From positions 39,184,001 to 39,248,000 of the forward strand of contig NC_092351.1 of NCBI RefSeq assembly GCF_963676685.1: 64,000 nt of DNA, given 5' to 3'. Source of the stretch: Mytilus edulis (taxonomy: Eukaryota). The notes under the pieces are model-generated. The model was not told the DNA's origin, did no database searches, and was given only the letters and a program-made list of their open reading frames with translations. The position numbers and the translations under genes are program-made. Of this stretch, positions 38,741-64,000 are shown piece by piece (position 1 is the first letter of the stretch; the number at the start of each line of letters is the position of its first letter).

Positions 38741-40995
38741 ACACAGGAGATTCTGTATCATGAACAAATGGGGGGGGGGGGGTATCCTGGATCAAGAAAT
38801 GTACAATTTCTGTTTATGTATAGTTGATCATTTGTATATATTGTTCATCTTAGATAATTGTATATTTATCATTGTATATAAAAATCATTATTTTAATCAC
38901 CCCCTCCAAGGGGAAACAATCCTGTCAATTCATTTAACAAAAAAATTTAGAAGCTTTCATTATATTTAATTATTTATGCCTTCAGCGTTGAATTCAAAAA
39001 TTTATCTATGTACATTTAAAGTTTCATTTGTCTCAGACTTTCAAGCTAACAGCTACAATACATTTTTCACTATGAAAGTGCTAAATAATTTTCATCACCA
39101 TTATATTTTAATTATGAAATGTTAATGAATGTCATGTTTAAATAGATTTTATAATAAAACATGAGAAATGTTACTATTTTCTTCTTTGTAGCTCATCTGA
39201 CCCTTAAGTCCATCATGATCTTTTGTCATCACTTGGTGTTCAGCATAAATTTATAGGAGTTAAAATGCCCTAACAGATGTTATTTAGCTAAATTGAAAAA
39301 ATTAACAGCCTTATTTATGTACAAGATAGTGGAAGAGAAGCACTAATTTGTAGGCATCAACCCTCCTCTAACCCTAGACACATGTGAAACTGTACAACAT
39401 AAGAACAAACAATTAAAAATCAGTTGAAAAAGCTTTAACTTCTCAAATGAATACTAATAGAAATACATCTACCAAAAATATCGAGTGGACGTTAACAAGT
39501 ACAACATCTCGACAACAAAAAGACAGATCTGAGAGTATGTCCAGCTACTGAAAGCTAGTTTGAAGCCAATAATAACTAATATAAATAAATCATGCATCTA
39601 AGACTAAATTATCAAGCAGTACACAGCCAACTTCCAATGGATTATGTAAAACAATAAAAACAATATTCAAAGATCTAAGTACAGGGTTGAATTGGTAACC
39701 TTTTAGAATAGGTTTATTTTAAGGATAGATTCTTAATTCCTGGGCTCTGCAAAGTTTGTCACAGCAGTATAAATTCATTTCCACGCATTTGAGAAATCAC
39801 AATCAGAAAATTATAGAAATTTTAACCACAGGTTTAATTTGTATTATAGATTGTTATTTTTTGTTTTGAAGAATATCATGATTATTTCTACTGGTCATAA
39901 TTGCATTGTGCACCGTCTACTTTTGATGCAAATGATTCTTTTCTTTTTTTTTGCTCATTAGATATAAACAAATTTGTTATAAAAGGATAAGTCTCCATGC
40001 CAATCTAGAGTTCTATTTTTATTTAGAATTTGGATTGTTTTACCAATTAAAAAATTGACATTTTTATGCATTATTATTTTAATTTGTTAAGTCACTGTAA
40101 TTGATATGAGAGACTTCTCCATAATTCATACTGAAAATATGAATAATAATGTAACAAGAAAATGTTAAGATTGGAAATGATATGAGTAATAATAATTATC
40201 TTTTGTATTAATTAATGTCAATGCTATCACCTACAGCTAAAGGTTATGACATGTAATTTTAATTGGAGTATTGCTTCAAACTTGTCATATTAATTAAGTA
40301 TTGCCTATGTTTAGTATAAATATTGGTTGTAAACTTATTTCAAAATAGAACACACATATAGAGTAGGACAGTACTTCAAATAGAGACGAGAGAAAGAGAA
40401 AAACAAGTATATAAGTAGTAGGGAACTTTTACAATAAGAGTCATATTGTAATAATTGTATAGACTTTAACCATTGTTTGTAACTTTGGCTTGGAATTAAA
40501 AGATGCACATGAATAAGTTGGATATTTGTAAACTGCAAATAATTATTTTCTGTCTTTGGTGTCTTTTAAACTGAAATGATTTTTTAATGATTTAAAAAAT
40601 AAAATCATGACCCATAACATAAAGGTAGCCAACCAAGCACCATCAGCCTCATTGTTGTTTTTATTTTAGATTTTGGTATAAATACAGCATCTATGTGTCC
40701 TTAGTTTTGTCAGAAAAATATTTTATTAACTTTAGGAAATACTTCCATAAACAATCTTTGACAAAAACTGAATGTAGTCTTGTATGTCAGAAATGTAATG
40801 TCGTGTAAAAGTTGTGATCTTTTCTAAAAACAAAATATCCAGAGGAAATTGAAGATAATGATTCAAAATAGTGGGAGTGCTTACAATGATAAATTTGAGT
40901 ATTCAAATGTTTTACACTATTAGAATTGCCTTCTCTTGCATATATAAACAAATCATTTTATTTTCAGAAATATTTCAAATCAATATTAAATCAAG

Positions 40996-43900
40996 ATGGG
41001 AAGGAAAGATGGAAAGCCACGTGGACGTATGTCATCATATGCCTTCTTTGTGCAGTGTTTTAGAGAGGAACACAAGAAAAAAAATCCAACAGAAAAAGTT
41101 GTGTTTGCTGAATTCACGAAAAAGTGTGCTGAAAAATGGAGGGTACGGTTTTTGATTGCATTATTTTATGGGAATTTACTATAAGGTTTGCCTGTCCCTT
41201 GATTATATCTTCCCTTGGACCAAGGACAACTTTCTACTTAAGGAGTGTTTCCTTCTCTGGGTTTTCTTTAAAAACCTTGTCCAGGCGGTCCATATATTTT
41301 TTTTTGATATTTAGCATGCATGGTGCTGACATGAATCATAATGGTGCTTCCCATAATTCATTATTGAGTTTGAAGCATATTTTTATCTTGCCTCGAGGTC
41401 AATAGGCCTTACTTTTTTATATTTTCGTGTGGAACATTCCATTCTTTGACAGGCTTTTGATATTTGGCGCATGGATGCACCACCTCAAGACAATGTTTTG
41501 ATTTCCATAGAAGAATACCGGTACTATGTACTTGTTATCTTTATATGTCCATCTTAAAACCTAGCATATTCTTTTTTGACATGGCAAGACTTTTTTAATG
41601 CATCTAATTATTTCTCTGAGTCATGCTCTACTCATTCTATAATAAATTGTAAGATATATTGAAAAAATATGGTTTAGATCCTCGCCCTTAATCATATAAT
41701 TCTACCTAGTTGTCTGTTGCGCTGCGAAAGATATGGTAATGGTCTTATGTCTGTCCCAAGCACATCATTACTCAGAGACCGTTTGACAGAAAGCTCTCAT
41801 TCATGGTAGAATTGTTGGCCACCATATCCAGTTGACCATAATATACCAACATTTTGTGGGAGATATGGGTAGTAGGTCTCATTGGGGTCTAAGCCTGACG
41901 CGGTATTGACTGATTTTTTTGTAAGTGTGACTCGTGAAAGTCAAATTATTGTGCATGGAAATGAAGTCTGGCAGGACACCTGGAATTACAAGCAATATTA
42001 TTTCAATGATAAGCGGGATACAGGATCAGATTTTAGGCATTTATTTAAGCAAAAGAGATCAGCCAAAATTTTAAAAATGTACTACCAAGTAATCATGTAC
42101 AATTTACAACTGGGTAAACAATACCTTTAGAGATTTAACAGTCAGAGTCCACTACCTTTAGAGATTTAACAGTCAGAGTCCACTACCTTTAGAGATTTAA
42201 CAGTCAAGTCTACTACTAGTGGTGTCAATAAATCAAAATCAAAACATTCTGATTTCTAACTGTGAACTAGCTTGGACTTGCAATTTGATAGTAGTAATGA
42301 TTTTATTTGTTACAATAGATGAATATTTTTTTGTATGTAAGAATTCTGGTTTTGTTTTGTAGGAAATCAGTGCAAAGGAAAAGAGGAAATATGAAGATAT
42401 GGCAGAGAAAGACAAAGCTAGATATGAGGGAGAAATGCAAAATTACGAGCCAGGACCAGGGGAGAAGGTCGGAAGAAAGAAGAGAGATAAAGATCCCAAT
42501 GCACCAAAGAGATCCCTGTAAGATGAATGTATATGTAGTGTGGCAATATTGGCTAATTTCTGAATCATCTTCCGTTTAAATATTTGAATTACTTGTCCGG
42601 GTTAAAAATTGACAACAGGATAAAAGTGGGAGCCAGGGACTTAAAGGATTATTTGAAAATGCCTGTACCAAGTCAGGAATATGACAGTTCTTGTCCATTT
42701 GTTTTTGATGCGTTTTGTTATTTGAATTTGCCATGTGATTATGGACTTTCCAAATTGATTTTCCTCTAAGTTCAGTATTTTTGTGATTTTACTTTTTAGA
42801 TTCTTAATTTGTAATCATTAAAGTACATAAATAATTGTTGTGTAGTAAGTTTTTCTAGAGCAGCTAGAATTGTCAGTAATGTCTGATTTTTTTAGACACT
42901 TGTGTGACTAGGTGTCTAGGTCAAAAATGTTCTTCATATTTTGGCTTATTGCATTGAACATGGGTAAATCTATTGATTTTGTGGCTAAGCTGACACAAGA
43001 TGAAAAGAATTATTTTTCCTTAGCTTGATGTAAGATCAATCCAATGGCAGTAAATACATAAAATAACTATTTATTTTCTTACAGTTCTGCATTCTTTTTC
43101 TTCTGTAATGAAGAAAGACCAAAAGTAAGGAAAGATCATGGTGATTGGTCGGTAGCGCTAGTAGCCAAGGAGATGGGAAAACGATGGGAGAAACAAACAG
43201 ATAGATCAAAATATGAAAAACAGGCAGCTGCAGATAAAATCAGATATGAGCAGGTAGGTTCAGCGCCACACAACTTTAAACTATTTTTTAAAAGCCAGCT
43301 TGGTTACTTTCTGCTCTGCAATTTCTTTCAATACATTAATGAATTTTATGGCAGTGCATGCATTTCAATTTTCAATAAGGAGGGATATTCTGGAAAAAGT
43401 TATTTGTGAGGAGGGGATGGGTAGGAAATTTGGAGGGTATAACTTTTCTTGTAATCGCTATCCATACAACTTGTAAGAAATGTACTGTAAATTCTGAATG
43501 TTTTTATTGTCGTGAAAAATTTACAGAATAAGGTATTGCAAAAACAAATAACTCCTATTTTGAATTCTGAAAGCATCATTTCATTATGTAGAGCAGGATT
43601 TGCTTACCCTTGCAGAGCACCTGAAATCACCCCCTGTTTTTGGTGGGATTCTTGTTGCTCAGTCTTTAGTTTTCTATGTTAAGTTTTGTCTACTCTTATT
43701 TGTCTCTTTTTCTTTTTTAACCAAGGCGTTGTCAGTTTATTTTTCGACTTGTGAATTTGAAATCACCTTTGGTATCTTTCGCCTCTCTTTTATATACAAC
43801 ATTTACTGGAATTGCAATAATTAATATCATTTTTGACCTTTTTTCAAAAATTCCAATAATGAATACATGCAGGAAATTACAGTTAAGATTTGAAATTAAT

Positions 43901-44276
43901 GCTAACTCCTACTAGATGAATTTTCCATTTTTTGTATCTCTCTAAAAAAAAATGAACTTGTTACAACAGCAACATAGGAACAACCATTTAACATAATGAC
44001 ATTTTAATGATAAGGTAATTTCCATGTCTTGTGAAGGACTACATTCAGTGGTAAAATTTCTTCTGAATTCTTGTTACTCATCATTTTTCCATGTGGATAC
44101 TTTAATTGATCTGATTCTTCTCCCCACAGGCAATGGCAAAATACAGGGGAGGTGGTGGTGGATCTCCAGCAAAGAAACCTGCAGGACCCCCAGCAAAGAA
44201 AGCCAAGCCAGAGAGTGAAGAAGAGGATGATGATGATGAAGAAGATGAGGAAGACGACGAAGAAGATGATGAATAA
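40996..44276 (+). CDS. HMGB: HMGB copy 2 (205 aa, intact); exons 40996-41142, 42363-42517, 43085-43253, 44130-44276
   Basis: Same exon lengths (147/155/169/147), GT-AG sites, no stops; VQCFREE variant; AATAAA at 44711. Confidence 0.93.
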
Positions 44277-46392
44277 ACACAAAAGATTCTGTATCATGAA
44301 CAATTGGGGGGTATCCTGGATCAAGAAATGTACAATTTCTGTTATGTATAGTTGATCATTTGTATATATTGTTCATCTTAGATGATTGTATATTTATCAT
44401 TGTACATAAAATCATTATTTTATTCATCCCATCTGAGGGGAAACAATCCTGTCATCTTACTTTAGAACAAAATTTAAGTAGTTTTTATGATATTATAATT
44501 ATTTATACATTTTCATGATGAATTTAAAATTTAACTGTGTAAAACATTTTAAGTTTCATCAGCTTCACAGACTTGCAGGCTAACAGCTACAATATTTTCT
44601 TTTTGCTATGGAGCAATGTAAAGGGAATGACTGAAAGTGCTGTATTTTTCATCACCATTTTTGTTTTAATCATGAAATGTCAATGAATGTCATGTTTAAA
44701 TAGATTTTATAATAAAACATATTTTAACTTGCTTAATTCTTTTTTTTTAACCAAACCTGGCACCAAGGCAATTTTACTGAAAACGTTTATTAACTTTTAT
44801 TAGGAGTGATTGCCTATAAACGACTGTTTTAACAAACTATTGCCTATTGTCTTCAAAACTATAATAGGTAGAAGTTCTTAGTGGGGCCTTTATCAAACAA
44901 GAGACTTGCAAATTTGAATGAAGTGTGAATAATTTGTACCATTATGGAGAAATGTGGACTTGTCTCAGGAACTATGTTATTGAAATCCAGCTCAGCAGAT
45001 GTGGTATGATTGCCAATAAGACAACACTCCACAAGAGACCAACTGGCAGAAATTAACAGCAATAGGTCACTGTTAAGCCTTCAACAATAAAAAAAAAAAA
45101 AATCCATACTGCATAGTCAGCTTTTAAAGGCCCAGAAATCAAATGTAAAACAAACTAACAGCCTTATAAATGTACACAAAAAATGATGAAACAAGAAATA
45201 TGTAACACAGCAACAAATGACAACTACTGAATTACAGGCTCTTGACATGGGATAGGCACATACAAACAAAATGTGACTGGTGTAACAGTACATCATAATA
45301 GTCCTGCCAACTTAGCATAAATTTCACCCTAACCTTGAAGAAAATGATAAGGGAGATAACTCTGCAAAAAAGACAGAAATATCAGTGAAAATTAATACAA
45401 AATTATAATTTAACCCTTGAAGGGCCTTCTATTTAACAGAATGTATTGATTCTTGATATTTTAACCATCTTTAGAGAATAAAAAACAACTATAAAGGTGT
45501 TTTCATATTTTTAGCTCGCCTGGCCCAAAGGACCAAGTAAGCTTTTCCCATCACTTGCGTACGTCGTCGTTAACTTTTACAAAAATCTTCTCCTGAAACT
45601 ACTGGGCCAAAATCATCATTGGGGTGTCTAGTTTAAAAAATGTGTCCAGTGACCCAGCCAACAAACCAAGATGGCCACCAGGACTAAAAATAGAACAGAG
45701 ACATAGTGGTAAAATATACATTTTGGCTTATATCTCTGAAACCAAAGCAAATCTTACAAGGGGTTAAATTGTTTATCAGGTCAAGATCTATCTGCCCTGA
45801 AATTTTCAGATAGATTGGAGAACCCGTTGTAACATTGCTGCTCCTTAAATGCTAATTTCAAGGAAATTTTGCTGTTTTTATATGACCACAAACAACCACA
45901 AAATTGAAAATTTTTTGGTCATATATTGGTATCACATTGGCGTCGGCATCCCAAGACTTTTGGTTTTCGCATTATAACTTTAGTATAAGTGAATAGAAAT
46001 CTATGAAATTTAAACACAAGGTTTATGACCATAAAAGGAAGGTTGTGATTGATTTTGGAAGTTTTGGTCCCAACAGTTTGGGAATTAGGGGCCCAAATAA
46101 GGATTTTCTTGGTTATCGCACTATTACTTTAGTTTAAGTAAATAGAAATCTATGAAATTTTGACACAAGGTTTATGACCACTAAAGGAAGGTTGGGAGCG
46201 TTGGTCCCAACAGTTAAGGAATTAGGAGCCAAAAAAGGGCCATTAAAAGCATTATTCTTGGTTTTCGCACAATAACTTTAGTATTAGTAAATAGAAATCA
46301 ATGAAATTTAAACACAAGGTTTATGAACACAAAAGGAAGTTTGGGAGTTGAGGTCCCAACAGTTTAGGAATTAGGGGCACAAATAAGCATTT

Positions 46393-46770
46393 TTAACCGG
46401 ATTTTTGTGACAAAAATGTCGGTTATTGATTTGGGGATGGGCGGGCGGGCGGCAATCAAATGTTGTCCGTGCATTAACTCATGAACCGTTTAACCAAAGC
46501 TTTTAAAATTTTAATATGTTGTTACTGACAACTAAATGAAGGTCAAGTTCAATAATGGCGATTTGACTTTTACCGTTCAGGATTTATGGTTCTTGAAAGA
46601 TTGAAAAATGGTTTTTCCAGTCATGTCCGTGCATTTACGCATGAACTGTTCTACCAAAACTTCCCATATTTTAATATGTGGTTACTGATGACAAAATGGA
46701 GGTCAAGTTCAATAACGACGATTTTGACTTTTACCGTTCAGGAGTTATGGTTCTTGAAAGATTGAAAAAA
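46393..46770 (+). mobile_element. 3'-truncated copy of the 161-bp-unit HINE-like element at the duplication junction (also 53170-53720 and 59386-59762)
   Basis: Begins TTAACCGGATTTTTGTGACAAAAATGTCGG as at 14049 and breaks off at GAAAGATTGAAAAAA just before the HMGB acceptor. Confidence 0.85.
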
Positions 46771-46832
46771 GATTGCATATATAAACAAATCATTTTATTT
46801 TCAGAAATATTTCAAATCAATATTAAATCAAG

Positions 46833-49800
46833 ATGGGAAGGAAAGATGGAAAGCCACGTGGACGTATGTCATCATATGTCTTCTTTGTGCAGAGTTTCAG
46901 AGAGGAACACAAGAAAAAAAATCCAACAGAAAAAGTTGTGTTTGCTGAATTCTCGAAAAAGTGTGCTGAAAAATGGAGGGTACGGTTTTTGATTGCATTA
47001 TTTTATGGGAAATTTACTATAAGGTTTGCCTGTCTCTTGATTATATCTTCCCTTGGACCAAGGACAACTTTCTACTTAAGGAGTGTTTCCTTCTCTGGGT
47101 TTTCTTTAAAAACCTTGTCCAGGCGGTCCATATTTTTTTTTTTATATTTAGCATGCATGGTGCTTCCCATAATTCATTATTGACTTTGAAGCATATTTTT
47201 ATCTTGCCTCGATAGGCCTTACATTTTTACATTTTCGTGTGGAACATTCCATTCTTTGACAGGCTTTTGATATTTGGCGCATGGATGCACCACCTCAAGA
47301 CAATGTGTTGATTTCCATGGAAGAATACTATGTACTTGTTATCTTTATATGTCCATCTTAAAACCTCACATATTCTTATTTGACATGGCAAGACTTTTTT
47401 AATGCATCTAATTATTTCTCTCTAAGTCATGCCCTACTCATTCTATAATAAATTGTAAGATATATTGAAAAAATATGGTTTAGATCCTCGCCCTTAATCA
47501 TATAATTCTACCTAGTTGTCTGTTGCGCTGCGAAAGATATAGTAATGGTCTCATGTCTGTCCCAAGCACATCAATACTCGGGAGACCGTTTGACAGAAAG
47601 CTCTCATTCATGGTAGGATTGTTGGCCACCATGTCCAGTTGACCATAATATACCAACATTTTGTGGGAGATATGGGTAGTAGGTCTCATTGGGGTCTAAG
47701 CCTGACGCGGTATTGGCTGATTTTTTTGTAAGTGTGACTCGTGAAAGTCAAATTATTGTGCATGGAAATGGAAATGAAGTCGGGCAGGACACATGGAATT
47801 ACAAGCAATATTATTTCAATGATAAGCGGGATACAGGATCAGATTTTAGGCATTTATTTAAGCAAAAGAGATCAGCCAAAGTTTTAAAAATGTACTACCA
47901 AGTAATCATGTACAATTTACAACTGGGTAAACAATACCTTTAGAGATTTAACAGTCAGAGTCCACTACTAGTGGTTCAATAAATCAGAATCAAAACATTC
48001 TGATTTCAAACTGAACTTGCTTAGACTTGCAATTTGATAGAAGTAATGATTTCATTTGTTACAATAGATGAATATTATTTTGTTCGTAAGAATCCTGGTT
48101 TTGTTTTGTAGGAAATCAGTGCAAAGGAAAAAAAGAAATATGAAGATATGGCAGAGAAAGACAAAGCTAGATATGAGGGAGAAATGCAAAATTACGAGCC
48201 AGGACCAGGGGAGAAAGTTGGAAGAAAGAAGAGAGATAAAGATCCCAATGCACCAAAGAGATCCCTGTAAGATAAATGCATATGTAGTGTGGCAATATTG
48301 GCTAATTTCTGAATCATCTTCCGTTTAAATATATGAATTACTTGTCCGGGTAAAAAAATTTACAACAGGATAAAAGTGGGAGCCAGGGACTAAAAGGATT
48401 ATTAGATTCTTAATTTGTAATCATTTAAAGTACATAAATGATTGTTAAAGTAAGACATTTTCACAATTCAATGTGGGTATTGCAATATATTAATTTCATG
48501 TCATGCTTTGTTGTTCATTGTTGTTCATTTTGGTACTTATAAATATCAACATATAATTTCTCTTTAACCTCCTTTCCCTTAATACTGCATTATACTGGCA
48601 CAAATGAAGTCTTGTGGATTATAAGTTTTTCTAGAGCAGCTTGAATTGTCAGTAATGTCTGATTTTGTAGACACTTGTGTGACTAGGTGTCTAGGGCAAA
48701 AATGTTCTTCATATTTTGGCTTATTGCAATGAAGATCATTGAACATGGGTAAATCTATTGATTTTGTGGCTGAGCTGACACAAGATGAAAGGAATCCCAA
48801 GATAAATAATTTTTCTTTAGCTTGATGTAAGATCAATCCAATGGCAGTAAATACATAAAATAACTATTTATTTTCTTACAGTTCTTCATTCTTTTTCTTC
48901 TGTAACGAAGAAAGGCCAAAAGTAAGGAAAGATCATGGTGATTGGTCGGTAGCGCTAGTAGCCAAGGAGATGGGGAAACGATGGGAGAAACAAACAGATA
49001 GATCAAAATATGAAAAACAGGCAGCTGCAGATAAAATCAGATATGAGCAGGTAGGTTCAGCGCCATACAACTTTAAATTATTTTTTAAAAGCCAGCTTGG
49101 TTACTTTCTGCTCTGCAATTTCTTTCAATACATTAATGTATTTTATGGCAGTGCATGCATTTCAATCTTCAATAAGGAGGGCTATTCTGGAAAAAGTTAT
49201 TTGTGAGGAAGGGATGGGTAGGAAATTTTGAGGGTATAACTTTTCTTGTACTCGCTATCCATACAACTTGTAAGAAATGTACTGTAAATTCTGAATGTTT
49301 TTATTGTCGTGAAAAATTTACAGAATAAGGTATTGCAAAAACAAATAACTCCTATTTTAAATTCTGAAAGCATCATTTCATTATGTAGAGCAGGATTTGC
49401 TTACCCTTGCAGAGCACCTGAAATCACCCCCTGTTTTTGGTGGGATTCTTGTTGCTCAGTCTTTAGTTTTCTACGTTAAGTTTTGTCTACTCTTATTTGT
49501 CTCTCTTTCTTTTTTAACCAAGGCGTTGTCAGTTTATTTTTGGACTTATGAATTTGAATGTACCTTTGGTATCTTTCGCCTCTCTTTTATATACAGCATT
49601 TACTGGAATTGCAATAATTAATATCATTTTTGACCTTTTTTCAAAAATTCCAATAATGAATACATGCAGGAATTTACAGTTAAGATTTGAAATTTATGCT
49701 AACTCCTACTAGATGAATTTTCCATTTTTTGTATCTCTCTAAAAAAAAAAATGAACTGGTTACAACAGCAACATAGGAACAACCATTTAACATATAAATG

Positions 49801-50077
49801 ACATTTTAATGATAAGGTAATTTCCATGTCTTGTGAAGGACTACATTCAGTGGTAAAATTTCTTCTGAATTCTTGTTACTCATCTTTTTCCATGTGGATA
49901 CTTTAATTGATCTGATTCTTCTCCCCACAGGCAATGGCAAAATACAGGGGAGGTGGTGGTGGATCTCCAGCAAAGAAACCTGCAGGACCCCCAGCAAAGA
50001 AAGCCAAGCCAGAGAGTGAAGAAGAGGATGATGATGATGAAGAAGATGAGGAAGATGACGAAGAAGATGATGAATAA
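46833..50077 (+). CDS. HMGB: HMGB copy 3 (205 aa, intact); exons 46833-46979, 48112-48266, 48882-49050, 49931-50077
   Basis: Same exon lengths and open frame; [13 protein letters not shown] variant and A103S; AATAAA at 50512. Confidence 0.9.
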
Positions 50078-51580
50078 ATACAAAAGATTCTGTATCATGA
50101 ACAATTGGGGGGTATCCTGGATCAAGAAATGTACAATTTCTGTTATGTATAGTTGATCATTTGTATATATTGTTCATCTTAGATGATTGTATATTTATCA
50201 TTGTACATAAAATCATTATTTTATTCATCCCAACTGAGGGGAAACAATCCTGTCATCTTACTTTAGAACAAAATTTAAGTAGTTTTTATGATATTATAAT
50301 TATTTATACATTTTCATGATGAATTTAAAATTTAACTGTGTAAAACATTTTAAGTTTCATCAGCTTCACAGACTTGCAGGCTAACAGCTACAATATTTTC
50401 TTTTTGCTATGGAGCAATGTAAAGGGAATGACTGAAAGTGCTGTATTTTTCATCACCATTTTTGTTTTAATCATGAAATGTCAATGAATGTCATGTTTAA
50501 ATAGATTTTATAATAAAACATATTTTAACTTGCTTAATTCTTTTTTTTAACCAAACCTGGCACCAAGGCAATTTTACTGAAAACTTTTATTAACTTTTAT
50601 TAGGAGTGATTGCCTATAAACGACTGTTTTGACAAACTATTGCCTATTGTCTTCAAAACTATAATAGGTAGAAGTTCTTAGTGGGTTTGATAAGGCCTTT
50701 ATCAAACAAGAGACTTGCAAATTTGAATGAAGTGTGAAAAATTTGTACCATTATGGAGAAATGTGGACTTGTCACAGGAACTATGTTATTGAAATCCAGC
50801 TCAGCAGATGTGGTATGATTGCCAATAAGACAACACTCCACAAGAGACCAACTGGCAGAAATTAACAGCAATAGGTCACTTAAGCCTTCAACAATAAAAA
50901 AAAAATTCATACTGCATAGTCGGCTTTAAAAGGCCCAGAAATCAAATGTAAAACAAACTAACGGCCTTATAAATGTACACAAAAAATGATGAAACAAAAA
51001 ATATGTAACACAGCAACAAGTGACAACTACTGAATTACAGGCTCTTGACATGGGATAGGCACATACATACATAATGTGACTGGTGTAACAGTACATCATA
51101 ATAGTCCAGCTAACTTAGCATAAATTTCACCCTAACCTTGAAGAAAATGATAAGGGAGATAACTCTGCAAAAAAGACAGAAATATCAGTGAAAATTGATA
51201 CAAAATCATAATTTAACCCTTGAAGTACCTTCCATTTAACAGAATGTATTGATTCTTGATATTTTAGCCATCTTTAGAGAATAAAAAACAACTATAAAGG
51301 TGTTTTCATATTTTTAGCTTGCCTGGCTAAGTGAGCTTTTCCCATCACTTGCGTCCGTCGTCGTTAACTTTTACAAAAATCTTCTCCTGAAACTACTGGG
51401 CCAAATTAAACCAACCTTGGCCAAAATCGTCATTGGGATGTCTAGTTTAAAAAATGTGTCCAATGACCCGGCCAACAAACCAAGATGGCCACCAGGACTA
51501 AAAAAAGAACAGAGACGTAGTGGTAAAATATACATTTTGGCTTATATCTCTGAAACCAAAGCAAATCTTACAAGGGGTTA

Positions 51581-52534
51581 CAGTGAGTTGACTGTTAGTG
51601 TTGCTCTCCACCAATTGCAATTCATTCCAAATTTTGACCAAATTGCAATTTGTTTTATAAAATCAAATTGTTCAACTGGTCAGAAATTTGAACCAACTGC
51701 TGTAGAAAACTACAGCCAAGTCATGAAAGTGCAAGGTGATAAAATAAAACATACTTACAATCCTATAAGACTTTAACTCCACTTTAATGATGTAACAAAA
51801 TTAGTTTATCAGTTTGTATAGTTATATTATATTCATTTCCATGCTGAAGGGGAACTGTTTATTTTGAATTGCTATTAAATTGTCCAAACTAAGCTTTCAT
51901 ATAGTTTTTCTTTTAGAAAGAAAAACTATATGAAAGCTTAGTATAGTTTTTCTTTCTAAAAGTATTCTATATTTATAAGAATCAGACATTATGTGAATTA
52001 AAACATTTCATATTCAGTAAAATATGTGTAAAATTGCAATATATGTTTGTATGAAGTTTCCATGGGGGAGATAATAACTTTTCTTTCAAAAAGTCTTTAT
52101 TCAAAAGAATAATATTTTAGGTTATCTCCCCTGAAAACTTATCAATAGCATATTGTTATTTCACACATATTTTACTGAATATATGATGTTTTATTTAAAA
52201 TGATATCTGATTCTTATAAATATAGAATACTTTTAGAAAGAAAAACTATATGAAAGCTTAGTTTGGACAATTTTATAGCATGAAAATAGCTATAATATAA
52301 CTATACAAACTGATAAACTAATTTTGTCACAACATCATTAAAGTGGAGTTAAAGTCATATAGGATTGTAAGTATGTTTTATTTTATCACCTTGCACTTTC
52401 ACATTTTGACTGAACAATTTGTTCAATATTCTGACCAGTTGAACAATTTGGGTTAATAAAACAAATTGCAATTTGGTCAAAATTTTTGAATGAGTTGCAA
52501 TTGGTGGAGAGCAACACTAACAGTCAACTCACTG
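51581..52534. mobile_element. 954-bp foldback/MITE, Tc1/mariner-like, TA target duplication
   Basis: TA|CAGTGAGTTGACTGTTAGTGTTGCTCTCCACCAATTGCAA...TTGCAATTGGTGGAGAGCAACACTAACAGTCAACTCACTG|TA. The empty site GGGGTTAAATTG is present in the sister units (~45760, ~58785). Confidence 0.93.
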
Positions 52535-53782
52535 TAAATTGTTTATCAGGTCAAGATCTATCTGCCCTGAAATTTTCAGATAGATTAAAGAACACGTTGT
52601 AACGTTGCTGCCCCTTAAATGCTAATTTCAAGGAAATTTTGCTGTTTTTATATGACCACAAAAAACCACAAAATTGAAAATTTTTTGGTCATATATTGGT
52701 ATCACATTGGCGTCGGCGTCCCAAGACTTGGTTTTCGCATTATAACTTTAGTATAAGTGAATAGAAATCTATGAAATTTAAACACAAGGGTTATGGCCAT
52801 AAAAGGAAGGTTGTGATTGATTTTGGAAGTTTTGGTCCCAACAGTTTGGGAATTAGGGGCCAAAAAGGGCCCAAATAAGGATTTTCTTGGTTTTCGCACT
52901 TACTTTCGTTTAAAGTAAATAGAAGTCTATGAAATTTTGACACAAGGTTTATGACCACTAAAGGAAGGTTGGGAGTGTTGGTCCCAACAGTTTAGGAATT
53001 AGGAGCCAAAAAAGGGCCATAATAAGCATTATTCTTGGTTTTCGCACAATAACTTTAGTATAAGTAAATAGAAATCAATGAAATTTAAACACAAGGTTTA
53101 TGAACACAAAAGGAAGTTTGGGAGTTGAGGTCCCAACAGTTTAGGAATTAGGGGCACAAATAAGCATTTTTAACCGGATTTTTGAGACAAAAATGTCGGT
53201 TATTGATTTGGGGATGTACGGCGGGCAGTCGGGCGGGCGGCAATCGAATGTTGTCTGTGCATTAACTCATGAACCGTTCAACCAAAGCTTTTAAAATTTT
53301 AATATGTTGTTACTGACAACTAAATGAAGGTCAAGTTCAATAATGGCGATTTTGACTTTTACCGTTCAGGAGTTAAGGTTCTTGAAAGATTGAAAAATGT
53401 TTTTTCCAGTCGTGTCCGTGCATTGACGCATGAACTGTTCTACCAAAGTTTCCCAAATTTTAATATGTTGGTACTGATGACAAAATGGAGGTCAAGTTCA
53501 ATAATGACGATTTTTACTTTTACCGTTCAGGAGTTAAGGTTCTTGAAAGATTGAAAAATGGTTTTTCCAGTCGTGTCCGTGCATTGACGCATGAACTGTT
53601 CTACCAAAGTTTCCCAAATTTTAATATGTTGGTACTGATGACAAAATGGAGGTCAAGTTCAATAATGACGATTTTTACTTTTACCGTTCAGGAGTTATGG
53701 TTCTTGAAAGAATGAAAAAAGTTTGTATATATAAACAAATCATTTTATTTTCAGAAATATTTCAAATCAATATTAAATCAAG

Positions 53783-56700
53783 ATGGGAAGGAAAGATGGA
53801 AAGCCACGTGGACGTATGTCATCATATGTCTTCTTTGTGCAGTGTTTTAGAGAGGAACACAAGAAAAAAAATCCAACAGAAAAAGTTGTGTTTGCTGAAT
53901 TCTCGAAAAAGTGTGCTGAAAAATGGAGGGTACGGTTTTTGATTGCATTATTTTATGGGAAATTTACTATAAGGTTTGCCTGTCCCTTGATTTATCTTCC
54001 CTTGGACCAAGGACAAATTTCTACTTAAGGAGTGTTTCCTTCTCTGGGTTTTCTTTAAAAACCTTGTCCAGGAGGTCCATAATTTTTTTTTTTATATATT
54101 TAGCATGCATGGTGCTGACATAAATCATAATGGTGCTTCCCATAATTCATTATTGACTTTGAAGCATATTTTTATCTTGCCTCGAGGTCAATAGGCCTTA
54201 CATTTTTACATTTTCGTGTGGAACATTCCATTCTTTGACGGGCTTTTGATATTTGGCGCATGGATGCACCACCTCAAGACAATGTGTTGATTTCCATGGA
54301 AGAATACTATGTACTTGTTATCTTTATATGTCCATCTTAAAACCTCACATATTCTTATTTGACATGGCAAGACTTTTTTAATGCATCTAATTATTTATCT
54401 AAGTCGTGCCCTACTCATTCTATAATAAATTGTAAGATATATTGAAAAAATATGGTTTAGATCCTCGCCCTTAATCATATAATTCTACCTAGTTGTCTGT
54501 TGCGCTGCGAAAGATATAGTAATGGTCTTATGTCTGTCCCAAGCACATCATTACTCAGAGACCGTTTGACAGAAAGCTCTCATTCATGGTAGGATTGTTG
54601 GCCACCATGTCCAGTTGACCATAATATACCAACATTTTGTGGGAGATATGGGTAGTAGGTCTCATTGGGGTCTAAGCCTGACGCGGTATTGGCTGATTTT
54701 TTTGTAAGTGTGACTCGTGAAAGTCAAATTATTGTGCATGGAAATGGAAATGAAGTCGGGCAGGAAACATGGAATTACAAGCAATATTATTTCAATAATC
54801 AAAACATTCTGATTTCAAACTGTGAACTTGCTTAGACTTGCAATTTGTTAGAAGTAATGATTTCATTTGTTACAATAGATGAATAATATTTTGTTCGTAA
54901 GACTCCTGGTTTTGTTTTGTAGGAAATCAGTGCAAAGGAAAAGAGGAAATATGAAGATATGGCAGAGAAAGACAAAGCTAGATATGAGGGAGAAATGCAA
55001 AATTACGAGCCAGGACCAGGAGAGAAGGTTGGAAGAAAGAAGAGAGATAAAGATCCCAATGCACCAAAGAGATCCCTGTAAGATAAATGCATATGTAGTG
55101 TGGCAATATTGGCTAATTTCTGAAGCATCTTCCGTCTAAATATTTGAATTACTTGTCCGGGTTAAGAATTGACAACAGGATAAAAGTGGGAGCCAGGGAC
55201 TTAAAGGATTATTAGATTGTTAATTTGTAATCATTAAAGTACATAAATGATTGTTAAAGTAAGACATTTTCACAATTCAATGTGGGTATTGCAATATATT
55301 AATTTCATGTCATGCTTTGTTGTTCATTGTTGTTTATTTTGGTACATATCAATATCAACATATAATTTCTCTTTAACCTCCTTTCCCTTAATACTGCATT
55401 ATACTGGCACAAATCAAGTCTTGTGGATTATAAGTTTTTCTAGAGCAGCTTGAATTGTCAGTAATGTCTGATTTTGTAGACACTTGTGTGACTAGGTGTC
55501 TAGGGCAAAAACGTTCTTTATATTTTAGCTTATTGCATTGAACATGGGTAAATCTATTGATTTTGTGGCTGAGCTGACATAAGGCCAAAAAAAATTACAT
55601 ATCTCTGTTTCCTGCTGCCAAGGCAAATAAATCAGGGTCGGAAGGTCGGGTTTTTTTTTTTTTATTATTTTTTTATTTTTGCACTCCCTGTCAGATTTGC
55701 AGTCGGTTAAATGTCATGTTTGGTTAGGGTCCTGTACCCTAAAATGATCTAATCTCTTAAAAGAAGCTTAAATTGAATAATCCTCCCAGTGCCGACATTT
55801 TTTAAACCTTAATTGTAGCACATTTGTGCTGGGAGCAGCCATTTTGATTGTTTGGGTATAGTAAAATACGGATCGGGATCAGACAGGAAACGAATTTTTC
55901 CGGACCAGAAACAAATTTTTTCCGGATTTGAATAAAAAGATCTAGGGTCGGGGTAGGTCGGGAAACAGGAAACAGACATATATTTTTTTTTGGCCTAAGA
56001 TGAAAAGAATCCCAAGGTAAATTATTTTTCTTTAGCTTGATGTAAGATCAATCCAATGGCAGTAAATACATAAAAATAACTATTTATTTTCTTACAGTTC
56101 TGCATTCTTTTTCTTCTGTAATGAAGAAAGACCAAAAGTAAGGAAAGATCATGGTGATTGGTCGGTAGCGCTAGTAGCCAAGGAGATGGGAAAACGATGG
56201 GAGAAACAAACAGATAGATCAAAATATGAAAAACAGGCAGCTGCAGATAAAATCAGATATGAGCAGGTAGGTTCAGCACCATACAACTTTAAACTATTTT
56301 TTAAAAGCCAGCTTGGTTACTTTCTGCTCTGCAATTTCTTTCAATACATTAATGAATTTTATGGCAGTGCATGCATTTCAATCTTCAATAAGGAGGGCTA
56401 TTCTGGAAAAAGTTATTAGTGAGGAAGGAATGGGTAGGAAATTTGGAGGGTATAATTTTTTCTTGTACTCGCTATCCATACAACTTGTAAGAAATGTACT
56501 GTAAATTCTGAATGTTTTTATTGTCGTGAAAAATTTACAGAATAAGGTATTGCAAAAACAAATAACTCCTATTTTAAATTCTGAAAGCATCATTTCATTA
56601 TGTAGAGCAGGATTTGCTTACCCTTGCAGAGCACCTGAAATCACCCCCTGTTTTTGGTGGGATTCTTGTTGCTCAGTCTTTAGTTTTCTATGTTATGTTT

Positions 56701-57290
56701 TGTCTACTCTTATTTGTCTCTTTTTCTTTTTTAACCAAGGCGTTGTCAGTTTATTTTTCGACTTGTGAATTTGAATGTACCTTTGGTATCTTTCGCCTCT
56801 CTTTTATATACAGCATTTACTGGAATTGCAATAATTAATATCATTTTTGACCTTTTTTCAAAAATTCCAATAATGAATACATGCAGGAATTTACAGTTAA
56901 GATTTGAAATTTATGCCAACTCCTACTAGATGAATTTTCCATTTTTTGTATCTCTCTAAAAAAAAATGAACTTGTTACAACAGCAACATAGAAACAACCA
57001 TTTAACATAATGACATTTTAATGATAAGGTAATTTCCATGTCTTGTGAAGGACTACATTCAGTGGTAAAATTTCTTCTGAATTCTTGTTACTCCTCATTT
57101 TTCCATGTGGATACTTAAATTGATCTGATTCTTCTACCCACAGGCAATGGCAAAATACAGGGGAGGTGGTGGTGGATCTCCAGCAAAGAAACCTGCAGGA
57201 CCCCCAGCAAAGAAAGCTAAGCCAGAGAGTGAAGAAGAGGATGATGATGATGAAGAAGATGAGGAAGACGACGAAGAAGATGATGAATAA
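53783..57290 (+). CDS. HMGB: HMGB copy 4 (205 aa, intact); exons 53783-53929, 54923-55077, 56098-56266, 57144-57290
   Basis: Same exon lengths and open frame; [13 protein letters not shown]; AATAAA at 57725. Confidence 0.9.
55583..55995. mobile_element. 413-bp PIF/Harbinger-like MITE in an intron of HMGB copy 4
   Basis: TAA|GGCCAAAAAAAA...TTTTTTTTGGCC|TAA. The empty site GACATAAGATG is present in copy 5 (~61820). Confidence 0.9.
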
Positions 57291-59824
57291 GCACAAAAGA
57301 TTCTGTATCATGAACAATTGGGGGGTATCCTGGATCAAGAAATGTACAATTTCTGTTATGTATAGTTGATCATTTGTATATATTGTTCATCTTAGATGAT
57401 TGTATATTTATCATTGTACATAAAATCATTATTTTATTCATCCCATCTGAGGGGAAACAATCCTGTCATCTTACTTTAGAACAAAATTTAAGTAGTTTTT
57501 ATGATATTATAATTATTTATACATTTTCATGATGAATTTAAAATTTAACTGTGTAAAACATTTTAAGTTTCATCAGCTTCACAGACTTGCAGGCTAACAG
57601 CTACAATATTTTCTTTTTGCTATGGAGCAATGTAAAGGGAATGACTGAAAGTGCTGTATTTTTCATCACCATTTTTGTTTTAATCATGAAATGTCAATGA
57701 ATGTCATGTTTAAATAGATTTTATAATAAAACATATTTTAACTTGCTTAATTCTTTTTTTTAACCAAACCTGGCACCAAGGCAATTTTACTGAAAACGCT
57801 TATTAACTTTTATTAGGAGTGATTGCCTATAAACGACTGTTTTAACAAACTATTGCCTATTGTCTTCAAAACTATAATAGGTAGAAGTTCTTAGTGGGTT
57901 TGATAAGGCCTTTATCAAACAAGAGACTTGCAAATTTGAATGAAGTGTGAATAATTTGTACCATTATGGAGAAATGTGGACTTGTCACAGGAACTATGTT
58001 ATTGAAATCCAGCTCAGCAGATGTGGTATGATTGCCAATAAGACAAAACTCCACAAGAGACCAACTGGCAGAAATTAACAGCAATAGGTCACTATTTAGC
58101 CTTCAACAATAAGAAAAGTCTATACTTCATAGTTGGCTTTAAAAGGCCCAGAAATCAAATGTAAAACAAACTAACGGCCTTATAAATGTACACAAAAAAA
58201 TGATGAAACAAGAAATATGTAACACAGCAACAAATGACAACTACTGAATTACAGGCTCTTGACATGGGATAGGCACATACAAACAGAATGTGACTGGTGT
58301 AACAGTACATCATAATAGTCTAGCCAACTTAGCATAAATTTCACCCTAACCTTGAAGAAAATGATAAGGGAGATAACTCTGCAAAAAAGACAGAAATATC
58401 AGTGAAAATTGATACAAAATTATAATTTAAACCTTGAAGGGCCTTCCATTTAACAGAATGTATTGATTCTTGATATTTTAGCCATCTTTAGAGAATAAAA
58501 AACAACTATAAAGGTGTTATCATATTTTTAGCTCGCCTGGCTAAGTGAGCTTTTCCCATCACTTGTGTCCGTCGTCGTTAACTTTTACAAAAATCTTCTC
58601 CTGAAACTACTGGGCCAAATTAAACCAAACTTGGCCAAAATCATCATTGGGGTGTCTAGTTTAAAAAATGTGTCCAGTGACCCGGCCAACAATCCAAGAT
58701 GGCCACCAGGACTAAAAATAGAACAGACACATAGTGGTAAAATATACATTTTGGCTTCTCTGAAACCAAAGCAAATCTTACAAGGGGTTAAATTGTTTAT
58801 CAGGTCAAGATCTATCAGCCCTGAAATTTTCAGATAGATTGGAGAACCCATTGTAACGTTGCTGCCCCTTAAATGCTTATATGACCACAAAAAACCACAA
58901 AATTGAAAAAATTTTGGTCATATATTGGTATCACATTGGCGTCGGCGTCCCAAGACTTTTGGTTTTCGCATTATAACTTTAGTATAAGTGAATAGAAATC
59001 TATGAAATTTAAACACAAGGTTTATGACCATAAAAGGAAGGTTGTGATTGATTTTGGAAGTTATGGTCCCAACAGTTTGGGAATTAGGGGCCAAAAAGGG
59101 CCCAAATAAGGATTTTCTTGGTTTTCGCACTTACTTTAGTTTAAGTAAATAGAAATCTATGAAATTTTGACACAAGGTTTATGACCACTAAAGGAAGGTT
59201 GGGAGTGTTGGTCCCAACAGTTTAGGAATTAGGAACCAAAAAAGGGCCATAATAAGCATTATTCTTGGTTTTCGCACAATAACTTTAGTATAAGTAAAAT
59301 AGAAATCAATGAAATTTAAACACAAAAGGAAGTTTGGGAGTTGAGGTCCCAACAGTTTAGGAATTGGGGGCACAAATAAGCATTTTTAACCGGATTTTTG
59401 TGACAAAAATGTCGGTTATTGATTTGGGGATGGGCGGCGGATTCAATCAAATGATGTCTGTACATAAACTCATGAACCGTTCAACCAAAGCTTTTAAAAT
59501 TTTAATATGTTGTTACTGACAACTAAATGAAGGTCAAGTTCAATAATGGCGATTTTGACTTTTACCGTTCAGGAGTTATGGTTCTTGAAAGATTGAAAAA
59601 TAGTTTTTCCAGTCGTGTCCGTGCATTTATGCATGAACTGTTCTACCAAAGCTTCCCAAATTTTAATATGTTGTTACTGATGACAAAATGGAGGTCAAGT
59701 TTAATAATGACGATTTTGACTTTTACCGTTCAGGAGTTATGGTTCTTGAAAGATTGAAAAAAGATTGCATATATAAACAAATTATTTTATTTTCAGAAAT
59801 ATTTCAAATCAATATTAAATCAAG

Positions 59825-62711
59825 ATGGGAAGGAAAGATGGAAAGCCACGTGGACGTATGTCATCATATGTCTTCTTTGTGCAGTGTTTTAGAGAGGAAC
59901 ACAAGAAAAAAAATCCAACAGAAAAAGTTGTGTTTGCTGAATTCTCGAAAAAGTGTGCTGAAAAATGGAGGGTACGGTTTTTGATTGCATTATTTTATGG
60001 GAAATTTACTATAAGGTTTGCCTGTGCCTTGATTATATCTTCTCTTGGACCAAGGACAACTTTCTACTTAAGGAGTGTTTCCTTCTCTGGGTTTTCTTTA
60101 AAAACCTTGTCCAGGCGGTCCATATTTTTTTTTTATATTTAGCATGCATGGTGCTGACATAAATCATAATGGTGCTTCCCATAATTCATTATTGACTTTG
60201 AAGCATATTTTTATCTTGCCTCGAGGTCAATAGGCCTTACTTTTTTACATTTTTGTGTGGAACATTCCATTCTTTGACAGGCTTTTGATATATGGTGCAT
60301 GGATGCACCACCTCAAGAAAAAGTGTTGATTTCCATAGAAGAATACCGGTACTATGTACTTGTTATCTTTATATGTCCATCTTAAAACCTCACATATTCT
60401 TATTTGACATGGCAAGACTTTTTTAATGCATCTAATTATTTCTCTAAGTCGTGTCCTACTCATTCTATAATAAATTGTAAGATATATTGAAAAAATATGG
60501 TTTAGATCCTCGCCCTTAATCATATAATTCTACCTAGTTGTCTGTTGCGCTGCGAAAGATATAGTAATGGTCTTATGTCTGTCCTAAGCACATCATTACT
60601 CAGAGACCGTTTGACAGAAAGCTCTCATTCATGGTAGGATTGTTGGCCACCATGTCCAGTTGACCATAATATACCAACATTTTGTGGGAGATATGGGTAG
60701 TAGGTCTCATTGGGGTCTAAGCCTGACGCGGTATTGGCTGATTTTTTTGTAAGTGTGACTCGTGAAAGTCAAATTATTGTGCATGGAAATGGAAATGAAG
60801 TCGGACAGGAAACATGGAATTACAAGCAATATTATTTCAATGATAAGCGGGATACAGGATCAGATTTTAGGCATTTATTTAAGCAAAAGAGATCAGCCAA
60901 AGTTTTAAAAATGTACTACCAAGTAATCATGTACAATTTACAACTGGGTAAACAATACCTTTAGAGATTTAAAAGTCAGAGTTCACTACCTTTAGAGATT
61001 TAACAGTCAGAGTCCACTACTAGTGGTTCAATAAATCAGAATCAAAACATTCTGATTTCAAACTGTGAACTTGCTTAGACTTGCAATTTGATAGAAGTAA
61101 TGATTTTATTTGTTACAATAGATGAATATTATTTTGTATGTAAGAATTCTGGTTTTGTTTTGTAGGAAATCAGTGCAAAGGAAAAGAGGAAATATGAAGA
61201 TATGGCAGAGAAAGACAAAGCTAGATATGAGGGAAAAATGCAAAATTACGAGCCAGGACCAGGGGAGAAGGTTGGCAGAAAGAAGAGAGATAAAGATCCC
61301 AATGCACCAAAGAGATCCCTGTAAGATAAATGCATATGTAGTGTGGCAATATTGGCTAATTTCTGAATCATCTTCTGTCTAAATATTTGAATTACTTGTC
61401 CGGGTTAAAAATTGACAACAGGATAAAAGTGGGAGCCAGGGACTAAAAGGATTTTTAGATTCTTAATTTGTAATCATTTAAAGTACATAAATGATTGTTA
61501 AAGTAAGACATTTTCACAATTCAATGTGGGTATTGTAATATATTAATTTCATGTCATGCTTTGTTGTTCATTGTTGTTTATTTTGGTACATATAAATATC
61601 AACATATAATTTCTCTTTAACCTCCTTTCCCTTAATACTGCATTATACTTGCACAAATGAATTCTTGTGGATTATAAGTTTTTCTAGAGCAGCTTGAATT
61701 GTCAGTAATGTCTGATTTTGTAGACACTTGTGTGACTAGGTGTCTAGGTCAAAAATGTTCTTCATATTTTGGCTTATTGCATTGAACATGGGTAAATCTA
61801 TTGATTTTGTGGCTGAGCTGACATAAGATGAATCAATCCCAAGAAAAATAATTTTTCTTTAGCTTGATGTAAGATCAATCCAATGGCAGTAAATACATAA
61901 AATAACTATTTATTTTCTTACAGTTCTGCATTCTTTTTCTTCTGTAACGAAGAAAGACCAAAAGTAAGGAAAGATCATGGTGATTGGTCGGTAGCGCTAG
62001 TAGCCAAGGAGATGGGAAAACGATGGGAGAAACAAACAGATAGATCAAAATATGAAAAACAGGCAGCTGCAGATAAAATCAGATACGAGCAGGTAGGTTC
62101 AGCGCCACACAACTTTAGACTATTTTTTAAAAGCCACCTTGGTTACTTTCTGCTCTGCAATTTCTTTCAATACATTAATGAATTTTATGGCAGTGCAGTG
62201 AATTTGAATGTACCTATGGTATCTTTCGCCTCTCTTTTATATACAGCATTTACTGGAAATGCAATAATTAATATCATTTTTGACCTTTTTTCAAAAATTC
62301 CAATAATGATCAATAATGAATACATGCAGGAATTTACAGTTAAGATTTGAAATTTATGCTAACTCCTACTAGATGAATTTTCCATTTTTTGTATCTCTCC
62401 TAAAAAATGAACTCGTTACAACAGCAACATAGGAACAACTATTTAACATAATGACATTTTAATGATAAGGTCATTTCCATGTCTTGTGAAGGACTACATT
62501 TAGTGGTAAATTTCTTCTGAATTCCATGTGGATACTTTAATTGATCTGATTTTTCTCCCCACAGGCAATGGCAAAATACAGGGGAGGTGGTGGTGGATCT
62601 CCAGCAAAGAAACCTGCAGGACCCCCAGCAAAGAAAGCCAAGCCAGAGAGTGAAGAAGAGGATGATGATGATGAAGAAGAGGAGGAAGACGACGAAGAAG
62701 ATGATGAATAA
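59825..62711 (+). CDS. HMGB: HMGB copy 5 (205 aa, intact); exons 59825-59971, 61166-61320, 61924-62092, 62565-62711
   Basis: Same exon lengths and open frame; E73K; AATAAA at 63145. Confidence 0.9.
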
Positions 62712-64000
62712 ACACAAAGATTCTGTATCATGAACAATTGGGGGGTATCCTGGATCAAGAAATGTACAATTTCTGTTATGTATAGTTGATCATTTGTATA
62801 TATTGTTCATCTTAGATGATTGTATATTTATCATTGTACATAAAATCATTATTTTATTCATCCCATCTGAGGGGAAACAATCCTGTCATCTTACTTTAGA
62901 ACAAAATTTAAGTAGTTTTTATGATATTATAATTATTTATACATTTTCATGATGAATTTAAAATTTAACTGTGTAAAACATTTTAAGTTTCATCGACTTC
63001 ACAGACTTGCAGGCTAACAGCTACAATATTTTCTTTTTGCTATGGAGCAATGTAAAGGGAATGACTGAAAGTGCTGTATTTTTCATCACCATTTTTGTTT
63101 TAATCATGAAATGTCAATGAATGTCATGTTTAAATAGATTTTATAATAAAACATATTTTAACTTGCTTAATTCTTTTTTTAACCAAACCTGGCACCAAGG
63201 CAATTTTACTGAAAACGTTTATTAACTTTTATTAGGAGTGATTGCCAATAAACGACTGTTTTAACAAACTATTGCCTATTGTCTTCAAAACTATAATAGG
63301 TAGAAGTTCTTAGTGGGTTTGATCAGGCCTTTGTCAAACAAGAGCCTTGCAAATTTGAATGAAGTGTGAATAATTTGTACCATTATGGAGAAATGTGGAC
63401 TTGTCACAGGAACTATGTTATTGAAATCCAGCTCAGCAGATGTGGTATGATTGCCAATGAGACAACACTCCACAAGAGACCAACTGGCAGAAATTAACAG
63501 CTAAAGGTCACTGTTTAGCCTTCAACAATAAGAAAAGTGCATACTGCATAGTCGGCTTTAAAAGGCCCAGAAATCAAATGTAAAACAAACTAACGGCCTT
63601 ATAACTGTATAAATGTACACAAAAAATAATGAAACAAGAAATATGTAACACAGCAACAAATGACAACTACTGAATTGCAGGCTCTTGACATGGGATAGGC
63701 ACATACATACAGAATGTGACTGGGTTAAACATGTAAGCAGGATCCCGAACCTGTGACTGGTGTAACAGTACATCATAATATTCCAGTCAATCTAGCATAA
63801 ATTTCACCCTATCCTTGAAGTAATTGCAACAGAGGATTTTAAGTTTTAATCTTTAGCATTATATCCAAAATTAAACCAAAATATACACAGAAAAAAGTCC
63901 CATAAAATCTAACTTGAGGAAAACTAAAATTTAAAATTCCTATGGAGATTTGCATTGATAAGGGAGATGACTCTGCAAAAAAGGCAGAAATATCAATGAA

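Follow-up and report, generated by a model that had tools for sequence, protein, structure and literature searches.

The locus described here is an array of HMGB coding cassettes on the forward strand of a 64,000-nucleotide stretch of Mytilus edulis DNA (NCBI RefSeq assembly GCF_963676685.1, contig NC_092351.1, positions 39,184,001 to 39,248,000), hereafter called the window. Five intact cassettes were found by a six-frame scan and gene models. Each codes for a protein of 205 amino acids in four coding exons of 147, 155, 169 and 147 nucleotides separated by GT-AG introns, and each protein is identical to one database protein labelled Mytilus edulis (Table 1). Copy 1 starts upstream of the coordinate range given in a preliminary description of this DNA. 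In all five proteins PF09011 and PF00505 scored above the cut-off on two stretches each, giving two tandem HMG boxes, and the protein ends in an acidic C-terminal tail of about 20 Asp/Glu residues. A genome search with coding exon 1 returned five matches (10 candidates scored), all of them in this array, and no sixth copy was detected by tblastn within 50 kb downstream of it. When the genome was searched for the HMG_box_2 family, 17 of 54 candidates matched; six are this locus and the best of the other 11 aligns at 38% identity. The array appears to be the sole HMGB1-like locus of the animal, the search being a lower bound.

Table 1. Features of the HMGB array (positions in the window).
Feature	Position	Strand	Remarks
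Putative promoter	33014..33097	+	from sequence; region 33020-33200 single in genome
Shared non-coding exon 1	33098..33167	+	donor after 33167; minor alternative donor after 33417
Cassette A (copy 1)	36712..39170	+	acceptor 36712; AATAAA at 39153; ancestral HMGB
Copy 1 coding exons	36740-36886, 37098-37252, 37731-37899, 38594-38740	+	identical to P0135
Cassette B1 (copy 2)	40968..44730	+	acceptor 40968; AATAAA at 44711; dominant isoform
Copy 2 coding exons	40996-41142, 42363-42517, 43085-43253, 44130-44276	+	C21/F22, A16, T41; identical to P0132
Copy 2 codons 21-22 (Cys-Phe)	41056..41061	+	Phe22 is the conserved derived change
Dispersed-repeat spacer	45500..46772		tandem units of ~148 bp and ~161 bp (self-BLAST)
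Cassette B2 (copy 3)	46805..50531; coding sequence 46833-50077	+	S21/F22, V16, S41; intact; identical to P0126
Cassette B3 (copy 4)	53755..57744; coding sequence 53783-57290	+	C21/F22, V16, S41; intact; identical to P0123
Cassette B4 (copy 5)	59797..63165; coding sequence 59825-62711	+	C21/F22, V16, S41, K73; intact; identical to P0122; last copy of the array

A putative promoter precedes a non-coding exon (exon 1) upstream of the whole array, and the 5' ends of RNA reads cluster at 33098-33144, just 3' of this promoter. Within it we take 33014-33019 to be a CRE-like (cyclic AMP response element) half-site, and 33038-33043 (reverse) and 33073-33077 to be CCAAT boxes. The region 33020-33200 has a single occurrence in the window and in the whole genome, no second exon 1 was found in a search of either, and copies 2 to 5 carry no duplicate of the promoter or of exon 1. 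Exon 1 has a start-stop element, ATG then TAG, in its 5' part (33110-33115), before the points at which most reads begin.

RNA was mapped from four raw-read runs (X21 to X24, organism B) and three contig sets (X1, X3 and X4, organism A), that is 7 of the 24 runs listed. Organism B is a close relative, distinct from the individual of the window, its DNA runs containing 60-65% of the words of the stretch. Between 6 and 18% of each run was read, X21 to X23 belong to one study, the mapping covered copy 1, copy 2 and the first coding exon of copy 3, and the contig depths of X1, X3 and X4 were left out of the expression measures. In all four raw runs, exon 1 is spliced by GT-AG joints either to acceptor 36712 (copy 1) or to acceptor 40968 (copy 2). 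The latter joint removes 7800 bases, namely the whole of copy 1 including its AATAAA. Junction reads to copy 1 and copy 2 numbered, respectively, 36 and 705 in X21, 25 and 334 in X23, 16 and 417 in X22 and 39 and 63 in X24, giving a copy-2 share of 0.95, 0.93, 0.96 and 0.62. These values are in agreement with those of the internal junctions (0.87-0.95 in the X21-X23 study and 0.64-0.65 in X24). The share is unequal between the studies (chi-square p ~1e-35), a test that says nothing on regulation. In organism A, an X3 contig contains the joint from exon 1 to copy 2 with a 26-letter side, X1 contains only the joint to copy 1, and X4 neither. The minor donor after 33417 was also spliced to acceptor 40968, with 16, 14 and 8 reads (38 in three runs), and four reads of X24 begin at about 34353, as a minor alternative 5' variant. 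The AATAAA signals of copies 1 and 2 occupy homologous sites and RNA coverage extends over both 3' untranslated regions (UTRs).

At codons 21-22 of copy 2, no departure from the window was seen among the best-supported rows (with 122 and 262 further rows). The contigs of X3 and X4 match the copy-2 exon from 41026 on, with no other letter in X3 and one over two exons in X4. Since reads and contigs agree with the window at these codons, the dominant form is the one with Cys21-Phe22 (CF), Ala16 and Thr41. In RefSeq the A and B proteins of M. californianus are named isoforms X1 and X2, and the copy-2 protein is named isoform X1; because A and B are called there isoforms of one M. californianus gene, the architecture is implicit in the automated annotation. 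We conclude with high confidence that copies 1 and 2 are alternative whole-open-reading-frame isoforms (A and B) of one transcription unit. The preliminary description had regarded the duplicates as separate paralogous genes, a view that the common first exon of copies 1 and 2 contradicts.

Candidate joints between A and B exons (37896 to 44127; 42517 back to 37731) were ascribed, as is likely, to mapping ties in identical stretches: the short side of the apparent joint from A exon 3 to B exon 4 never exceeds 55 letters and lies inside a 58-nucleotide stretch identical in A and B. The RefSeq protein P0128 (M. californianus isoform X3) is a chimera with the front half of A and the back half of B, which may be genuine mixing or a mapping artefact. 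An own promoter for the bulk of copy-2 transcripts, located at TATATAAA about 25 nucleotides before the B acceptor, was ruled out by the hundreds of reads in which exon 1 is joined there. The TATATAAA site itself is at 40941-40950; matching sites stand before copies 3 to 5, about 25 nucleotides before each B acceptor, and none before acceptor A. It could supply the distal copies 3 to 5 with a promoter of their own.

The protein sequences were then compared at the redox cysteines. In alignment with human HMGB1, mussel residues 21 and 22 correspond to Thr-Cys of human box A, and the position equivalent to mussel 22 is a Tyr in human box B. The motifs previously reported for copies 1 to 5 (TC, CF, SF, CF and CF) were borne out by the six-frame scan and gene models, and so was the retention of C44 and C108 in all five. 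Copy 1 reads VQ-T-C-REE (codons ACT TGT; Cys at 22, 44 and 108), copies 2, 4 and 5 read VQ-C-F-REE (TGT TTT; Cys at 21, 44 and 108) and copy 3 reads VQ-S-F-REE (AGT TTC; Cys at 44 and 108). The canonical triad (equivalents of C23, C45 and C106) is complete in copy 1 and broken in copies 2 to 5, four of four having Phe22.

Among the B-type proteins of five Mytilus species Phe22 is present in 13 of 13, and residue 21 is Cys in nine, Ser in three and Thr in one; this set omits a 40-amino-acid fragment, the mis-modelled P0001, the A/B chimera P0128 and the frameshifted P0139. The counterparts of copy 2 carry TF in M. coruscus, SF in M. californianus and M. trossulus, and CF in M. edulis and M. galloprovincialis. 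In the tree, the B clade has a support of 100/100, and an A form with TC is found in all five species. Because Phe22 is fixed while residue 21 varies between C, S and T, the conserved change is the loss of the disulfide partner in the C22-C44 pair. The earlier wording, that the cysteine had moved by one residue, is correct for the letters and fails as a history. On these sequences, the simplest history would be C22F, a one-base change, in the duplicate, with a later drift from T to S to C at residue 21, this order being inferred.

Outside the genus, 165 non-Mytilus homologues of at least 80 amino acids were surveyed (the best 120 of 120 and the best 120 of 667, a sample in which close relatives are over-represented). 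Of these, 158 have Cys at residue 22, two have Phe, two Ile (scallops), two Thr and one Gln. The seven losses read TI in scallops and TF (unnamed), TT, WT and TQ elsewhere. Residue 21 is Cys in seven of the 165 (clams, as CC). Neither CF nor SF, the pairs put forward earlier for a survey of mollusc HMGBs, occurs at 21-22 in any of the 165, so the motifs of the array are no product of chance. Judged from this survey, the loss of Cys22 is rare yet recurrent, and Cys21 is tolerated next to an intact Cys22. Box A cysteines also vary in other bivalves, with Cys30 in the B form of M. coruscus and in oyster-like sequences, CC in clams and Ile22 in scallops (P0131, P0008, P0012, P0026, P0022, P0029, P0084 and P0030).

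The AlphaFold model of the copy-2 protein has a pLDDT (predicted local distance difference test) of 81-92 over residues 11-70 and places helix I at residues 14-29 and helix II at residues 37-50. Its box A has the three-helix HMG fold and overlays 1CKT at 0.8 Å over 71 residues and 4QR9 at 1.1 Å. Given this close fit to HMGB1 box A (0.8 Å), Phe22 is compatible with the fold. In an ideal-helix projection, residue 22 deviates by 17 degrees and residue 21 by 117 degrees from the mean core direction (positions 15, 18, 19, 22 and 26), and a shift by one residue would displace a sulfur-like point by about 7 Å. A C21-C44 bond is predicted to be unfavourable because the ideal helix turns residue 21 away from helix II. 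We consider it very probable that the copy-2 protein is disulfide-null.

Copies 2 to 5 are alike at 92-97%, introns included, and their mutual similarity starts only about 30 nucleotides before the acceptor of the first coding exon (self-BLAST). Copy 2 is preceded by three weak matches (E 1e-5 to 0.005) that lie in collinear order and are left over from the intron-1 3' end, so the founding duplication began inside intron 1. It was a partial tandem duplication, which took the last part of intron 1, every coding exon and the 3' UTR, and left exon 1 out. Compared with the element copy at 14046-15100, a 161-bp-unit element is cut and joined about 30 nucleotides upstream of the acceptors of copies 3, 4 and 5 by an identical junction, which suggests a single event followed by unequal crossing-over. 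Copies 3 to 5 are proposed to be later expansions of B, constrained yet minor in the samples seen.

Taking these data together, we propose, as a reasonably probable reading, that one promoter and exon 1 serve two proteins of unlike redox behaviour. Exon 1 is spliced to copy 1 (Cys22) or past it to copy 2 (Phe22), the more frequent message in the runs counted, whose product is predicted to lack the box A disulfide and likely binds and bends DNA when oxidised. The reads show exon 1 joined to acceptor 36712 or acceptor 40968, the second joint removing copy 1 entirely as an intron. The choice may be a race, in which either the copy-1 acceptor and poly(A) site are used first or transcription runs through to the acceptor of copy 2, with an outcome likely dependent on tissue or state. 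C22F appears to have been fixed in the duplicate before the five sampled Mytilus species diverged, the drift of residue 21 presumably coming after. Phe22 would fill the core between helices I and II, and Cys21, some 117 degrees away, would not pair with Cys44. At the weakest step, B may be the main, oxidation-resistant HMGB of chromatin, and A a redox-responsive and possibly released form. Since the C23 equivalent is lost and the copy-2 form is transcribed, spliced in frame and more abundant than copy 1, the redox-insensitive variant of the preliminary description is plausible; its rewired variant finds no such footing, residue 21 being C, S or T and not fixed. Whether redox insensitivity is the selected function of B is close to an even question, leaning slightly to the negative. 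A bolder extension, which we consider unlikely, is that the HMGB redox switch has moved from the protein to the spliceosome: regulated skipping of a copy would set the balance between a Phe22 oxidation-proof chromatin HMGB and a disulfide-competent Cys22 alarmin, an adaptation to the hypoxia and reoxygenation of intertidal life, the distal copies being stage-specific cassettes of exon 1.

Counts of splicing motifs near the acceptors showed no contrast, and the 200 nucleotides before acceptor A hold one STAR-like motif and no UGUGUG. Two candidates were rejected as evidence: an RNA pairing that would hide acceptor A, whose best duplex (-24.5 kcal/mol) was matched by 2 of 60 shuffles, and a 71% inverted repeat across acceptor A, one of 127 such pairs in an AT-rich stretch.

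Several observations weigh against the proposed reading. No convincing cis regulatory element was found around the acceptors. The B share of 93-96% against 62% could reflect tissue, genotype or library, and all raw reads come from organism B, a close relative and not the individual of the window, with three of the four runs from one study. The core positions of the helix wheel were of our own choosing, position 22 itself among them. Cys22 is at times dispensable, having been lost in the seven outside homologues. A and B differ at 28 non-synonymous changes and at about 20% of the 3' UTR. In the main text on oyster Ca-HMGB, no cysteine, redox or isoform term appears (PMC3510179).

The alternative that survives best accepts the architecture and makes C22F a tolerated passenger, B being kept for dosage, because of its 3' UTR or for other changes in DNA binding; fixed competition between splice sites would then set the A:B ratio, with no role in redox control. 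Because B differs from A at so many other residues and in the 3' UTR, C22F need not be the selected change. The two proteins are 87% identical, with a synonymous divergence (dS) of 0.30, a non-synonymous divergence (dN) of 0.059 and a dN/dS of 0.20 (pairwise Nei-Gojobori); for box A alone dN/dS is 0.23 and for the remainder 0.24, which gives no local signal of positive selection, and no such signal appeared in any pairwise value, all being below 1 where defined. The outside losses of Cys22, the Tyr of human box B and the lack of redox data for any mollusc HMGB in our literature search also fit a passenger. Against it, Phe22 is invariant in five species while its neighbour varies, A is kept intact with Cys22 in all five despite its minor status, and the A:B ratio is strongly unequal between studies, a comparison that is no test of regulation. 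We hold this alternative to be possible, though rather unlikely.

A second alternative takes copies 3 to 5 for duplicates made by the assembly or for silent alleles of recent origin by copying, which would leave the A/B pair as the only one of importance. In X22, 11-12 sense reads matched the first coding exon of copy 3, and in X24 none; the reads carry the CF allele, no read listed in X22 or X24 carries the SF allele of copy 3, and no joint from exon 1 to copy 3 occurs among 15 of the 61 joints. This very low read support favours silence, and constraint could have been inherited from a past as alleles of a working B. The sense reads of X22 nevertheless speak against it, as do the intron divergence of 3.5-9.7% between pairs of copies, their separate insertions, and the V16/S41-type proteins on record from M. 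edulis (also in non-RefSeq records), M. galloprovincialis and M. trossulus. Furthermore, the variable coding sites of copies 2 to 5 comprise 12 synonymous and 7 non-synonymous ones (p=3.6e-5), and 3 of 441 columns vary in their 3' UTR, compared with 143 of 1539 in the introns (p=6e-13; misalignment probably inflates the variability of intron 2, but 5-6% is also obtained from introns 1 and 3 by themselves). From these comparisons the distal copies look maintained by constraint, yet they are scarce in these RNA samples. We consider this second alternative unlikely, and it concerns the distal copies alone, the main claim being unaffected. The 3' UTR (44277-44730 in copy 2) is more conserved across copies 2 to 5 than the coding exons, though copies 3 to 5 are scarcely present in RNA.

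The weakest alternative, that of the preliminary description, in which a shifted Cys makes a rewired C21-C44 or intermolecular disulfide and the five paralogs form graded redox states, is very improbable: Cys21 in nine of the 13 B proteins, among them the form dominant in the runs mapped, the CC clams (7 of 165), the purifying selection on copies 3 to 5 and the intermolecular or mixed disulfides that a surface Cys21 could form speak for it, and against it stand the copy-2 counterparts without Cys21 in M. californianus, M. trossulus and M. coruscus, the modelled helix geometry pointing residue 21 away from helix II, and the few distal-type reads with no SF read listed. Because copies 3 to 5 are scarcely seen in RNA, a redox code of five states, and with it the genetically encoded set of redox states once suggested, finds no support; the runs mapped show substantial expression of two forms only.

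Some further elements surround the array. A 692-bp segment with 32-nucleotide terminal inverted repeats (94%) lies within intron 1 at 34787-35478 and is presumably a miniature inverted-repeat transposable element (MITE). A dispersed element that carries a GGCG microsatellite and tandem units of 161 bp is found at 14046-15100, 31484-31703, 46390-46772, 53167-53722 and 59383-59764; we assume it to resemble a Helentron-type non-autonomous element. Upstream, an exon at 13389-13781 has a weak MitMem_reg match (E 0.0026, below the cut-off) and belongs to a probable neighbour gene, which we take to resemble eIF3 subunit F.

In mammalian HMGB1, the C23-C45 disulfide alters DNA bending, localisation and receptor use (PMC7659026, PMC7662367, PMC11276821, PMC12682395). 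The chemokine/cytokine switch invoked in the preliminary description is described in mammals (CXCL12/CXCR4 and TLR4-MD2), and no demonstration in a mollusc was found. Like vertebrate HMGB1-3, the mussel proteins have two HMG boxes, an acidic tail and the box A fold, isoform A keeping all three cysteines; unlike them, where the redox state of one protein changes, the major mussel isoform is genetically without the disulfide partner. Mammalian HMGB4 is probably a precedent, as a paralogue without the C23 equivalent that binds platinated DNA whatever the redox state. HMGB4 differs from the mussel form as a separate, intronless, testis-biased gene without acidic tail, neither splice-selected nor a bulk form. 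Oyster Ca-HMGB is reported to leave the nucleus, to be released from hemocytes and to serve as a pro-inflammatory signal; a single form is described there, against two splice forms in the mussel (PMC3510179). No paper was found on Mytilus HMGB isoforms, splice choice or the CF/SF motif, in a search thin on subscription journals, where much shellfish immunology appears.

The open reading frames of the ChAT/VAChT locus are not known to be paralogues. That locus has been named as similar to C. elegans unc-60A/unc-60B, which, as in the mussel, are alternative whole-open-reading-frame isoforms of one gene, and whose regulators are established (ASD-2 and SUP-12 on CUAAC and UGUGUG elements; PMC3469465), in contrast with the sparse motifs before acceptor A. 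Zebrafish Ugt5a1-5a4 also resemble the mussel locus, with a single promoter and a common 5' non-coding exon spliced to alternative tandem coding cassettes, which in the zebrafish are mutually exclusive and apparently each have a poly(A) site of their own (PMC2819257). There, however, the open reading frames are single exons and enzymes are diversified, whereas the mussel skips a four-exon cassette with its poly(A) signal and varies the redox cysteine of a chromatin protein. The architecture has precedents in Ugt5a1-4 and unc-60, and the splice-selected dominant Cys-less form is more interesting than the cysteine shift.

The C23-C45 disulfide is regarded as a conserved core of animal HMGB, and 96% of the homologues in our survey retain the cysteine at this position. 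A main HMGB message without the disulfide partner, together with a minor form keeping it, is a natural protein pair with which to probe the role of the disulfide beyond mammals, whether in DNA binding in the nucleus or in danger signalling. It also illustrates how the locus came to hold a promoterless duplicate rescued by the first exon of its parent and turned into the main product. For mussel immunology and stress studies, an 'HMGB1' assay that relies on a single antibody or primer pair would fail to tell the two forms apart or would overlook one.

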